NCBI RefSeq assembly: GCF_029227855.1
Contig: NZ_CP074356.1
Source: Escherichia coli
GTDB taxonomy: Bacteria > Pseudomonadota > Gammaproteobacteria > Enterobacterales > Enterobacteriaceae
Length of the DNA: 64,000 nucleotides
Reading direction: 5' to 3' (one strand)
Within the stretch, counting starts at the first letter, position 1. The number at the start of each line of letters is the position of its first letter. The notes below the pieces were generated by a model that saw only the letters and a program-made list of their open reading frames with translations, ran no database searches and was not told the origin of the DNA. Shown here one piece after another: positions 9,124 to 15,211 of the stretch. The translations under genes were made by a program, and so were the position numbers.

Positions 9124-11361
9124 GTGGACTGGCTTCTTGATGTTTTTGCTACCTGGCTCTACGGCTTAAAAGTAATCGCGATAACGTTAGCGGTCATCAT
9201 GTTCATCAGCGGGCTGGACGATTTTTTTATTGATGTCGTCTACTGGGTACGCCGCATTAAACGCAAGTTGAGTGTTTATCGCCGCTACCCGCGAATGAGT
9301 TACCGCGAACTGTATAAACCAGATGAAAAACCGTTAGCGATTATGGTTCCGGCGTGGAATGAAACGGGCGTCATCGGCAATATGGCCGAGCTGGCGGCGA
9401 CCACGCTCGACTATGAAAACTATCATATCTTTGTTGGCACCTACCCCAACGACCCCGATACACAGCGTGATGTTGACGAAGTGTGCGCTCGCTTCCCGAA
9501 CGTGCATAAGGTAGTCTGCGCGCGTCCTGGCCCCACCAGCAAAGCCGACTGCCTGAACAACGTGCTGGACGCCATCACCCAGTTTGAGCGTAGCGCCAAT
9601 TTCGCTTTTGCTGGTTTTATTCTGCATGACGCCGAAGACGTAATTTCACCGATGGAATTGCGTCTGTTCAACTATCTGGTCGAGCGTAAAGATCTGATTC
9701 AGATCCCGGTGTATCCGTTCGAACGCGAATGGACGCACTTCACCAGCATGACTTACATTGATGAGTTTTCAGAACTGCATGGCAAAGATGTTCCGGTGCG
9801 TGAAGCCCTCGCCGGACAAGTGCCCAGCGCAGGCGTCGGTACCTGTTTCAGCCGCCGCGCCGTGACCGCACTGTTAGCTGACGGTGACGGTATTGCTTTC
9901 GACGTGCAGAGTCTTACTGAAGATTACGACATTGGTTTCCGCCTGAAAGAAAAAGGTATGACGGAAATTTTTGTCCGTTTTCCGGTGGTGGACGAAGCCA
10001 AAGAACGCGAGCAGCGTAAATTTTTACAGCACGCGCGGACGTCAAACATGATCTGCGTGCGCGAATATTTCCCTGATACCTTTTCGACTGCGGTTCGACA
10101 AAAATCTCGCTGGATCATCGGCATTGTTTTCCAGGGCTTTAAAACCCACAAATGGACCTCCAGCCTGACGCTGAACTACTTTCTCTGGCGCGACCGCAAA
10201 GGGGCAATCAGTAACTTTGTCAGCTTTCTCGCGATGCTGGTGATGATCCAGCTTCTGCTGTTACTGGCGTATGAAAGTTTGTGGCCCGATGCCTGGCATT
10301 TCCTTTCTATTTTCAGCGGCAGCGCATGGTTAATGACCCTGCTGTGGCTAAACTTTGGTTTGATGGTTAACCGCATCGTGCAGCGGGTGATTTTTGTCAC
10401 TGGCTACTACGGTCTGACGCAGGGGCTGCTATCTGTCCTGCGTCTTTTCTGGGGCAACCTGATTAACTTCATGGCCAACTGGCGCGCGTTAAAACAGGTA
10501 CTTCAACACGGCGATCCACGTCGTGTCGCGTGGGATAAAACAACGCATGACTTCCCCAGCGTGACTGGCGATACCCGCTCGTTGCGCCCGTTAGGCCAAA
10601 TTCTGCTGGAAAATCAGGTCATCACTGAAGAACAACTCGATACAGCACTGCGTAATCGCGTCGAAGGTCTACGCCTGGGCGGTTCAATGCTGATGCAGGG
10701 GCTGATTAGCGCCGAACAGCTGGCACAGGCGCTGGCAGAGCAAAACGGCGTGGCGTGGGAATCCATCGACGCCTGGCAGATCCCGTCCTCGCTGATTGCC
10801 GAAATGCCGGCCTCCGTGGCGCTGCATTATGCAGTGCTGCCGCTGCGTCTGGAAAATGATGAGTTAATTGTCGGCAGTGAAGATGGTATTGACCCGGTTT
10901 CGCTGGCGGCCCTGACGCGTAAAGTCGGACGCAAAGTGCGTTACGTCATTGTTCTGCGGGGACAAATTGTCACGGGGTTACGCCACTGGTATGCGCGCCG
11001 ACGCGGTCACGATCCGCGGGCAATGTTGTACAATGCGGTTCAGCATCAGTGGCTCACGGAACAGCAGGCCGGTGAAATCTGGCGGCAATATGTGCCGCAT
11101 CAGTTCCTGTTCGCCGAAATACTGACCACGCTCGGTCATATTAATCGTTCAGCAATTAACGTGTTGTTATTGCGCCATGAACGCAGTTCTCTGCCGCTCG
11201 GCAAGTTTTTGGTCACCGAAGGCGTTATCAGCCAGGAAACGTTGGATCGCGTCCTGACAATTCAACGCGAATTACAAGTTTCGATGCAATCACTATTACT
11301 CAAAGCAGGTTTAAATACAGAACAGGTTGCGCAACTGGAGTCCGAAAATGAAGGAGAATAA
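9124..11361 (+). CDS. nfrB: NfrB, inner-membrane glycosyltransferase (phage N4 adsorption protein B) with a C-terminal c-di-GMP-binding domain
   Basis: A 745-aa ORF with a GTG start; the N-terminus MDWLLDVFATWLYGLKVIAI and the length match NfrB. Confidence 0.93.
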   Translation: MDWLLDVFATWLYGLKVIAITLAVIMFISGLDDFFIDVVYWVRRIKRKLSVYRRYPRMSYRELYKPDEKPLAIMVPAWNETGVIGNMAELAATTLDYENYHIFVGTYPNDPDTQRDVDEVCARFPNVHKVVCARPGPTSKADCLNNVLDAITQFERSANFAFAGFILHDAEDVISPMELRLFNYLVERKDLIQIPVYPFEREWTHFTSMTYIDEFSELHGKDVPVREALAGQVPSAGVGTCFSRRAVTALLADGDGIAFDVQSLTEDYDIGFRLKEKGMTEIFVRFPVVDEAKEREQRKFLQHARTSNMICVREYFPDTFSTAVRQKSRWIIGIVFQGFKTHKWTSSLTLNYFLWRDRKGAISNFVSFLAMLVMIQLLLLLAYESLWPDAWHFLSIFSGSAWLMTLLWLNFGLMVNRIVQRVIFVTGYYGLTQGLLSVLRLFWGNLINFMANWRALKQVLQHGDPRRVAWDKTTHDFPSVTGDTRSLRPLGQILLENQVITEEQLDTALRNRVEGLRLGGSMLMQGLISAEQLAQALAEQNGVAWESIDAWQIPSSLIAEMPASVALHYAVLPLRLENDELIVGSEDGIDPVSLAALTRKVGRKVRYVIVLRGQIVTGLRHWYARRRGHDPRAMLYNAVQHQWLTEQQAGEIWRQYVPHQFLFAEILTTLGHINRSAINVLLLRHERSSLPLGKFLVTEGVISQETLDRVLTIQRELQVSMQSLLLKAGLNTEQVAQLESENEGE

Positions 11362-14320: not shown

Positions 14321-15211
14321 ATGCGTAAGTTCATTTTCGTATTGCTGACACTGCTTTTGGTCAGCCCTTTTTCCTTTGCGATGAAAGGTATTATCTGGCA
14401 ACCACAAAACCGTGATAGTCAGGTTACCGATACCCAGTGGCAGGGGCTGATGAGTCAGTTACGTTTGCAAGGCTTCGATACCCTGGTTTTGCAATGGACC
14501 CGTTACGGCGATGCATTCACCCAGCCAGAACAGCGCGCGTTATTGTTTAAGCGTGCAGCAGCTGCGCAACAGACTGGCCTGAAGCTGATTGTCGGGCTGA
14601 ATGCCGATCCGGAATTTTTTATGCACCAGAAACAGTCATCCGCGGCGCTGGAAAGCTATCTTAATCGCCTGCTGGCTGCCGATCTCCAGCAAGCCAGATT
14701 ATGGAGCGCCGCGCCTGGCGTAACGCCGGATGGCTGGTACATCAGCGCGGAAATTGACGACCTGAACTGGCGCAGCGAAGCCGCCCGTCAACCGTTGCTG
14801 ACATGGTTAAACAACGCGCAGCGGTTGATTAGCGATGTTTCAGCAAAACCGGTTTATATCAGTAGTTTTTTCGCCGGAAACATGTCGCCAGATGGCTATC
14901 GCCAACTGCTGGAACAAGTTAAAACAACCGGCGTTAATGTCTGGGTACAGGATGGCAGCGGCGTGAATAAACTTACCGCTGAACAGCGTGAACGTTATCT
15001 ACAGGCCAGCGCCGATTGCCAAAGTTCCGCCCCTGCCAGCGGCATTGTTTATGAACTGTTTGTCGCCGGCAAAGGCAAAACCTTTACAGCGAAACCGAAA
15101 CCGAATGCAGAGATCGCCTCGCTGTTAGCGAAACGTTCCTCTTGCGGTAAAGACACGCTCTATTTCTCTCTGCGCTATTTGCCCGTCGCACACGGCATTC
15201 TCGAGTATTAA
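14321..15211 (+). CDS. ybcH: YbcH, periplasmic protein of the Nfr system
   Basis: 296 aa. The ATG immediately follows the nfrA stop (TAAATG), and there is a signal peptide MRKFIFVLLTLLLVSPFSFA. Confidence 0.9.
   Translation: MRKFIFVLLTLLLVSPFSFAMKGIIWQPQNRDSQVTDTQWQGLMSQLRLQGFDTLVLQWTRYGDAFTQPEQRALLFKRAAAAQQTGLKLIVGLNADPEFFMHQKQSSAALESYLNRLLAADLQQARLWSAAPGVTPDGWYISAEIDDLNWRSEAARQPLLTWLNNAQRLISDVSAKPVYISSFFAGNMSPDGYRQLLEQVKTTGVNVWVQDGSGVNKLTAEQRERYLQASADCQSSAPASGIVYELFVAGKGKTFTAKPKPNAEIASLLAKRSSCGKDTLYFSLRYLPVAHGILEY

Follow-up and report, generated by a model that had tools for sequence, protein, structure and literature searches.

An intact nfrB-nfrA-ybcH operon with tightly joined genes beside a vgrG-Rhs-ISAs1 island in Escherichia coli

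The question raised by this locus is whether three closely packed genes are the E. coli nfrB-nfrA-ybcH operon, whether their junctions are compatible with translational coupling, and whether a neighbouring Rhs island matters to them. When the window (the whole stretch of 64,000 nucleotides that was analysed) was read together with its list of open reading frames, the operon was located at 9124-15211 on the + strand and its boundaries were confirmed base for base. The same three CDS boundaries are given by the PGAP annotation of a 100 % identical E. coli chromosome (NZ_AP045174.1; 100 % DNA match to E. coli JNEC-KY178, with identical gene calls). In Pfam and NCBIfam searches, all three proteins exceeded the curated cut-offs of the NfrB, NfrA and YbcH/DUF4434 families. 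Gene order and protein lengths (745, 990 and 296 amino acids) equal those of nfrBA-ybcH in K-12 MG1655 (b0569-b0567), and the two operons share the GTG start of nfrB, a 14-nt overlap of nfrB and nfrA, the TAAATG abutment of nfrA and ybcH and 141 bp of upstream sequence. The best overall explanation, with a probability of about 0.93, is that 9124-15211 is the E. coli nfrBA-ybcH operon, a synthase-dependent exopolysaccharide system. The operon, its junction geometry and the functions stated for it are already published, and the locus was correctly recognized but is ordinary.

The first gene, nfrB (9124-11361, + strand), is an open reading frame that starts with GTG at 9124, ends with TAA at 11359-11361 and encodes 745 amino acids. 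Its predicted product is a family-2 glycosyltransferase of the inner membrane that carries a c-di-GMP-binding MshEN domain at its C-terminus (Pfam Glyco_trans_2_3, 2.1e-40; MshEN, 3.8e-14). It also matches over its full length NCBIfam NF008411, the c-di-GMP-activated glycosyltransferase (1332.7 bits against a curated equivalog cut-off of 1170), and the NCBIfam c-di-GMP_motif model at 1.4e-18. Protein alignment gave identity to K-12 NfrB at 745 of 745 residues (100 %). Through this alignment the processive GT2 motifs DxD, TED and QxxRW were located at D169-A-E-D172, T265-E-D267 and Q326-K-S-R-W330, and the MshEN residues L490, G491 and L537 were found to be retained.

When NfrB was compared with solved structures (phmmer, PDB), the only matches were to MshEN-type c-di-GMP domains of PilF, PilB and MshE, and the glycosyltransferase domain had no match. 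Residues ~487-625 resemble the MshEN domains of type IV pilus ATPases (PilF, E = 5.7e-17; MshE 5htl, 2.4e-05), including the RxLGxxL motif of MshE, PilB and PilF around L490-G491. The partner of the domain differs, being a glycosyltransferase in NfrB and a secretion ATPase in the pilus proteins. Experiments in K-12 have shown NfrB to be a processive family-2 glycosyltransferase of the inner membrane. It is reported to bind c-di-GMP through MshEN (Kd near 1 uM), and the diguanylate cyclase DgcJ supplies c-di-GMP locally to the protein (PMC8669469). The same study mutated the GT2 active-site residues and described point mutants in catalytic and MshEN residues, the interaction with DgcJ and the operon structure (PMC8669469). 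The first-pass annotation had called NfrB a c-di-GMP-binding glycosyltransferase, and this is borne out by the GT2 and MshEN matches here and by the binding measured in the identical K-12 protein (PMC8669469).

The second gene, nfrA (11348-14320, + strand), runs from ATG 11348 to TAA 14318-14320 and encodes 990 amino acids, 976 of which (98.6 %) are identical to K-12. NfrA is predicted to be an export protein of the outer membrane that carries a signal peptide, TPR repeats and, at its C-terminus, a beta-barrel. It scored 1883.9 bits against NCBIfam NF007302 (cut-off 1223), and its Pfam matches were NfrA_C (1.4e-67), TPR_19 (2.1e-10) and further TPR families. Among solved structures, phmmer returned generic TPR matches only and the barrel was unmatched.

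In the nfrB/nfrA junction (11337-11361, + strand), a GGAG at 11337-11340 and a 7-nt spacer are followed by the nfrA ATG (11348) and the nfrB TAA (11359-11361). Read directly from the sequence, the overlap therefore spans 11348-11361, the 14 nt previously claimed, and PGAP and K-12 agree with this reading. The same overlap has been shown for K-12 (PMC8669469 Fig. 1B). It had been suggested that an nfrA start placed elsewhere would remove it. A start mis-assigned in this way is extremely improbable. The N-terminus of NfrA (MKENNLNRVIGWSGLLLTSLLSTSALA-DN) resembles a signal peptide, and the only in-frame starts upstream of its core are TTG 11327 and ATG 11348, both of which precede the nfrB stop. 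The next one, TTG 11408 (codon 21, 20 codons past the ATG), falls inside the hydrophobic core. Only TTG 11327 and ATG 11348 keep the signal peptide intact, and with either of them the two genes overlap, so shifting the nfrA start cannot abolish the overlap. In addition, ATG 11348 has the GGAG 7 nt upstream, is the start given by PGAP, the K-12 reference annotation and PMC8669469, and corresponds to homologues in which the nfrA ATG also sits on the nfrB stop. The mis-call was thus rejected by the in-frame start analysis, and the overlap holds wherever a signal-peptide-preserving start is chosen.

At the second junction (14306-14323, + strand), a GGAG at 14306-14309 lies within the last nfrA codons (Gly-Val), and TAA 14318-14320 is followed directly by the ybcH ATG at 14321. 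The first-pass annotation had placed the ybcH start on the base after the nfrA stop, and this is what was found: there are zero intergenic bases at 14318-14323, and nfrA and ybcH are in a common reading frame.

A comparison of the junctions then covered 80 related loci, from Gamma- and Betaproteobacteria of other genera, with nfrA starts assigned by a first-ATG rule. The nfrA start overlaps the nfrB stop or lies within 3 nt of it in 71 of 74 loci, and the modal gap is -4 (the ATGA 4-nt overlap). Measured from the nfrA stop, the ybcH start is at -7 to 0 in 55 of 63 loci, ranging from a 7-nt overlap to direct abutment. Overlap or abutment at both junctions is kept across about 75 species with NfrB identities from 51 % to 99 %, and in intact loci the intergenic space never exceeds a few bases. 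Judged from these sequences, the tight arrangement is more than chance, and the 14-nt overlap derives from the ATGA overlap typical of the family.

The Shine-Dalgarno (SD) motifs embedded in the upstream genes are conserved as well. In 55 loci, NfrA codon -4 is restricted to GGA, GGG or AGG, with GGC and GGT absent, and none of the ybcH starts has an SD duplex weaker than -5.5 kcal/mol. The motif in the last nfrA codons is thus held at synonymous positions. The duplex at the nfrA start of the window is -5.9 kcal/mol, and the duplexes at the nfrA and ybcH starts are far stronger than those at random positions within nfrA (Mann-Whitney p = 2e-18 and 4e-34, respectively).

The conserved stop/start overlaps and the embedded SD motifs are consistent with translational coupling and do not prove it, so the earlier proposal of coupling stands as a statement of consistency only. 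In such a scheme, one mRNA would carry all three genes; ribosomes ending nfrB would initiate nfrA at the ATG 14 nt before the nfrB stop, and those ending nfrA would initiate ybcH at the next base. The GGAG embedded in the upstream gene would aid each start, and synthesis of the three partners would be linked. Promoter-like and terminator-like sites inside the operon were no more frequent than in shuffled sequence.

The overlaps could also be plain operon compaction, with nfrA and ybcH initiated independently and their proximity a neutral by-product. Each downstream gene has its own SD motif (GGAG in both cases), so independent initiation would work too. Nor were the start sites hidden by conserved or significantly stable RNA structure: RNAalifold predicted zero pairs on 19 Enterobacterales junctions, giving no structure that masks the ybcH start, and single-sequence folds of the junctions were not significantly stable (z-scores -0.27 and -1.63; a third fold tested, +0.52). 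In bacterial operons generally, neighbouring genes are most often spaced by overlaps of 4 nt and 1 nt, and within this family the exact length of the overlap varies (-14, -4, -1 or 0). Against this, both junctions stay tight in Gamma- and Betaproteobacteria even where NfrB identity falls to 51 %, which argues for selection on the arrangement, not specifically for coupling. We consider neutral compaction rather unlikely.

The differences from K-12 are confined to the flanks of the operon. In K-12, cusS directly adjoins nfrB, whereas here its place is taken by a vgrG-Rhs-ISAs1 island of ~14 kb. Downstream of envY, K-12 has a DLP12 prophage segment (ompT, appY) that is absent from the window. In alignment, the native nfrB upstream region (8983-9123, + strand; 141 bp) does not differ from the sequence between cusS and nfrB in K-12, and the operon promoter presumably lies within it. 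The region contains an SD-like AAGG at 9113-9116, 7 nt ahead of the nfrB GTG. Expression of the K-12 operon is reported to be FliA-dependent and low-level (PMC8669469). When the 197 bp upstream of nfrB were searched, the best match to the sigma-28 consensus (TAAAGTTT-N11-GCCGATAA) was 10/16 and no sigma-70 site reached the threshold.

The first-pass annotation had suggested that the Rhs neighbourhood may matter for phage or competition phenotypes. The island could alter nfr expression, by read-through or from an outward promoter at the IS end, and so change phage susceptibility. Its ISAs1 end is 141 bp from the nfrB start (the ISAs1 ends were left undelimited by an inverted-repeat search), the + strand carries no terminator-like site from the transposase gene to nfrB, and a perfect TTGACA faces nfrB at 8953-8958, but without a good -10. 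This hexamer sits in the 57 bp that separate the transposase stop from the boundary of K-12 homology. However, no promoter reached the consensus threshold, and neither the 141 bp ahead of nfrB nor the NfrB protein differs from K-12. The configuration is also common: among 5426 complete E. coli genomes, 2470 (about 46 %) carry the junction, so that the island beside nfrB is a common lineage insertion polymorphism. A functional Rhs linkage, for which no evidence was found, was rejected because of this frequency and the retention of the native upstream sequence, and an effect of the island on nfr expression appears very improbable.

At the other end of the operon, a 13-bp hairpin (15221-15249, + strand) begins 10 nt after the ybcH stop, is followed by a weak U-tract (CUUUCGCUCU) and is likely the 3' end of the operon transcript. 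The RNA fold of 15205-15290 has a z-score of -2.55, and 4 of 200 shuffles fold as well. The hairpin was not picked up by a consensus terminator scan, and the only Rfam match in 8700-16500 was a tRNA at 16204-16277.

The third gene, ybcH (14321-15211, + strand), starts with ATG at 14321, has a stop codon ending at 15211 and encodes 296 amino acids with 97 % identity to K-12. The DUF4434 protein YbcH is predicted to be periplasmic, with a signal or anchor sequence at its N-terminus. It matches DUF4434 (Pfam PF14488) over its full length with 230.6 bits (cut-off 30) and NCBIfam NF007404 with 518.3 bits (cut-off 344). A sequence search with phmmer gave no match among solved structures. The predicted structure is a confidently modelled, glycoside-hydrolase-like (beta/alpha)8 TIM barrel, in which E144 (strand 138-145) is placed at the end of strand 4 and E245 (strand 241-245) at the end of strand 7. 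Both glutamates are invariant in 40 homologues.

Among the components of the system YbcH is the least understood, and it has been termed a putative scaffold or auxiliary protein in the literature. The hydrolase-like barrel and the two invariant glutamates make a periplasmic polymer-trimming enzyme more likely than a scaffold. Tethered to the membrane in the periplasm, YbcH would probably trim or clear polymer, as do BcsZ, PgaB-C, PslG and PelA in related systems. A more specific proposal, which we put forward tentatively and at slightly less than even odds, is that YbcH is a periplasmic retaining glycoside hydrolase (clan GH-A-like, with the E144/E245 pair) that trims or releases the Nfr glycan NGR, and that its synthesis is tied to NfrA through the SD motif conserved at codon level in the last nfrA codons.

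The Nfr/NGR system has been described by Junkermeier & Hengge 2021 (PMC8669469) and Sellner et al. 2021 (PMC8669472), and the NGR model is reported in the latter. In the scheme proposed in the K-12 papers, NfrB would polymerise a ManNAc-based glycan (NGR), and NfrA, with its TPR and beta-barrel parts, would move it through the outer membrane, to be bound there by N4 and other phages. The first-pass annotation had named the three genes as the phage N4 receptor, and the identities and functions it gave are supported, with a qualification as to what the receptor is. Both nfrB and nfrA are necessary for N4 infection in K-12 (PMC8669469; PMC8669472), as is WecB, the supplier of UDP-ManNAc. However, the primary receptor in current work is the NfrB-made, NfrA-exported glycan NGR, with NfrA possibly a second-step receptor, and K-12 N4 plating does not need YbcH, whose contribution is at most partial in the current literature.

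Comparison with related polysaccharide systems shows where Nfr differs. In the cellulose system Bcs (BcsA/BcsC/BcsZ), c-di-GMP is sensed by PilZ in BcsA, and in the PNAG system Pga (PgaCD/PgaA/PgaB) by the PgaC-PgaD interface, whereas NfrB carries MshEN. Unlike in Bcs and Pga, the proposed Nfr substrate is UDP-ManNAc (PMC8669469). The locus in the window does not depart from the published Nfr/NGR system. Our additions to the published picture are modest, namely the family-wide tight stop/start junctions with embedded SD motifs and the resemblance of YbcH to glycoside hydrolases.

This operon governs how susceptible a strain is to N4 and other NGR-using phages. If the proposed role of YbcH is true, its activity would tune the amount of phage receptor displayed. 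NGR can be masked by O-antigen (bioRxiv 10.64898/2026.07.23.740414). The operon is intact, with an NfrB that matches K-12 at every residue and with full-length NfrA and YbcH, and the strain is therefore predicted to be able to display the NGR receptor, barring masking by O-antigen or capsule.

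The nfrB-nfrA-ybcH locus is an already known system. The nfrBA-ybcH operon has been described with its 14-nt overlap stated explicitly (Fig. 1B of Junkermeier & Hengge 2021, PMC8669469), and according to the same study c-di-GMP is bound by the MshEN domain of NfrB (Kd ~1 uM), NfrB interacts with the diguanylate cyclase DgcJ, nfr expression is low, post-exponential and FliA-dependent, and N4 infection requires nfrB, nfrA and wecB, with ybcH dispensable. A ManNAc-based glycan dependent on NfrB, NfrA and WecB (NGR) was proposed as the primary N4 receptor (Sellner et al. 2021, PMC8669472). 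Later RB-TnSeq work confirmed nfrA, nfrB, wecB and dgcJ, and the contribution of ybcH was partial. The first-pass annotation of NfrB as a c-di-GMP-binding glycosyltransferase, and of the nfr genes as the N4 receptor system, matches both 2021 papers and the family models. As the observed operon features are already in these papers, the finding restates published biology.

The three ORFs were listed on the same (plus) strand: nfrB at 9124-11361 (GTG start, 745 aa, TAA at 11359-11361), nfrA at 11348-14320 (11327/11348-14320 in the ORF list; ATG at 11348-11350, TAA at 14318-14320) and ybcH at 14321-15211 (ATG at 14321-14323, 296 aa). When the sequence was read directly, both junctions proposed earlier were confirmed, namely the 14-nt overlap of the nfrA ATG with the nfrB stop and the start of ybcH at the base after the nfrA stop (TAAATG, zero spacer). 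The genes nfrA and ybcH share a common reading frame. Read-through of the TAA in the 14318-14323 junction would be expected to give an in-frame NfrA-YbcH fusion, and no sign of such read-through was seen. Over a 6.5-kb stretch the sequence matches E. coli JNEC-KY178 (NZ_AP045174.1) at 100% identity, and there the PGAP calls for the three genes have exactly the same boundaries, and K-12 MG1655 shares the gene lengths and both junctions.

It had been suggested that mapping the nfrA start elsewhere could abolish the overlap, but this fails because both usable starts precede the nfrB stop. Upstream of the signal-peptide core, TTG 11327 and ATG 11348 are the only start codons in the nfrA frame; the next one (TTG 11408, codon 21, 20 codons after the ATG) lies within the hydrophobic core of the signal peptide. 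ATG 11348 is preceded by GGAG at 11337-11340 (spacer 7 nt), and no comparable motif was found upstream of TTG 11327. An alternative ybcH ATG at 14381 was rejected: it has no Shine-Dalgarno (SD) motif and would lose the N-terminal hydrophobic segment.

Species-representative genomes were scanned with NfrB and 80 loci (51-99% identity) were obtained from Enterobacterales, Aeromonas, Vibrionaceae, Xanthomonadales, Burkholderiales and Neisseriales, nearly all keeping the order nfrB-nfrA-ybcH. Start sites in these loci were assigned by fixed rules and not by experiment. A 4-nt nfrB/nfrA overlap (ATGA) was present in 45 of 76 loci under the longest-ORF rule and in 48 of 74 under the first-ATG rule, where nfrA overlapped nfrB or started within 3 nt of its stop in 71/74. 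The 14-nt overlap was seen, among the related loci scanned, only in Escherichia and Citrobacter amalonaticus. An alignment of the junctions indicates that this form arose from ATGA via a frame change extending NfrB to a TAA 10 nt downstream.

The nfrA-ybcH gap fell between -7 (an overlap) and 0 in 55/63 loci, usually as TGG-TAA-TG (-1) or GTGA (-4), with the TAAATG form in Escherichia, Franconibacter and Cedecea. The final NfrA codon was TGG (Trp) in 55/55 loci, and codon -4, which carries the embedded SD, was GGA (33), GGG (9) or AGG (13), with GGC and GGT absent even from GC-rich lineages. Predicted anti-SD duplexes reached -5.5 kcal/mol or lower at 55/55 ybcH starts vs 9% of 4260 random intra-nfrA positions (Mann-Whitney p = 4e-34), and at 55% of nfrA starts (p = 2e-18). 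Judging from these loci, the junction architecture is under selection. The conserved junctions fit the putative translational coupling suggested in the first-pass annotation, but each downstream gene has its own SD, so independent initiation may also occur. No conserved or significantly stable start-masking RNA structure was found at the junctions.

In six loci from Vibrionaceae, Enterovibrio and Arsukibacterium (L074, L075, L079, L080, L081 and L083), the only in-frame start candidates give ybcH/nfrA overlaps of 76-85 nt, reflecting either a true long overlap or a non-canonical start. In Photobacterium sp. GB-56 (L076) the nfrA and ybcH homologues are upstream of nfrB, and in Algicola sagamiensis (L082) a ybcH homologue directly follows nfrB and an NfrA match was not found.

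From 8983, 141 nt before the nfrB GTG, the sequence is identical to the region between cusS and nfrB in K-12, and no convincing sigma-70 or sigma-28 promoter was found within these 141 nt. A 13-bp hairpin with a weak U-tract (15221-15249; z-score -2.55) lies 3' of the ybcH stop. Within the operon, promoter-like and terminator-like sites were not more frequent than in shuffled sequence, and Rfam families gave zero matches.

An insert of ~14 kb separates cusS from nfrB, whereas in K-12 only 149 bp of intergenic DNA lie between these genes. Within the insert are vgrG, a DcrB-like gene, a complete Rhs gene, orphan fragments of Rhs and PAAR accompanied by putative immunity genes, DUF4304 and ISAs1. 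This island covers window 1-8982 (Rhs CDS end 2974; ISAs1 transposase 7790-8926) and 26569-31001 of L003, the record of the source-strain region reaching beyond the window. The ISAs1-nfrB junction was found at >=80% coverage in 2470/5426 complete E. coli genomes, which makes it a common polymorphism. Beside the island, both NfrB and the native 141 bp 5' of its gene are unaltered; a TTGACA at 8953-8958 points toward nfrB and is without a good -10. The relevance of the Rhs neighbourhood to phage or competition phenotypes, raised earlier, is speculation outside the supported interpretation, and nothing pointing to a functional link was found. Downstream lies envY (15394-16155), with tRNA-Arg (minus strand, 16204-16277) directly after it, then fimZ and the sfm genes; in K-12 these are separated by a DLP12 prophage segment (including ompT and appY) that is absent here. 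Outside the window and upstream of cus (L003 10101-10993), the entD-ybdK interval holds two hokE toxin genes in tandem, and a degraded ORF overlaps and accompanies each of them.

Pfam assigned two GT2 families and MshEN to NfrB, TPR families and NfrA_C to NfrA, and DUF4434 to YbcH; all three score above the curated cut-offs of their NCBIfam equivalog models. The operon was present at >=80% coverage in 5048/5426 complete E. coli genomes and missing from 183. Its DNA differs by ~2% from K-12-derived laboratory strains. Protein identity to K-12 declines along the operon, from NfrB (745/745, 100%) to NfrA (976/990, 98.6%) and YbcH (287/296, 97.0%), so purifying selection looks strongest on the synthase. 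Since NfrB is identical, all residues mutagenised in K-12 (D169, D267, W330, L490, G491 and L537) are present.

Nonsense alleles of nfrB occur in E. coli SCPM-O-B-8794 (W551 to TAG, L004 7651-7653) and Hafnia alvei GB001 (R123 to TGA, L012 6367-6369), and a comparable nonsense mutation of nfrA in an O157:H7 strain was described in a 2026 preprint. Such alleles are consistent with the receptor pathway being lost under phage pressure. The nfrA frame is cut short in two Enterobacteriaceae/Buttiauxella metagenome-assembled genomes, with stops at codon 681 (L007, near 10259) and codon 891 (L020, near 9373), which may reflect either pseudogenes or errors of assembly.

In the literature, YbcH is a putative scaffold or auxiliary protein (PMC8669469). 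Our AlphaFold2 model (40 homologues; pLDDT 94.8, pTM 0.91) has an N-terminal helix followed by eight strand-helix units, as in a glycoside-hydrolase-like (beta/alpha)8 barrel, and Foldseek gave weaker matches of that type. Retaining hydrolases of clan GH-A carry a catalytic signature of one Glu on strand 4 and one on strand 7. In YbcH, E144 and E245 lie at the ends of strands 138-145 and 241-245, respectively, and are invariant in 40/40 sequences; so are D146, D147, Q210 and a number of Trp and Tyr positions. Solely from its fold and conservation pattern, we infer that YbcH may be the periplasmic hydrolase of the Nfr system, a predicted role that would be analogous to those of BcsZ, PgaB-C, PslG and PelA. 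We give slightly less than even odds (about 0.45) to YbcH being an active NGR hydrolase whose synthesis would be tied to NfrA.
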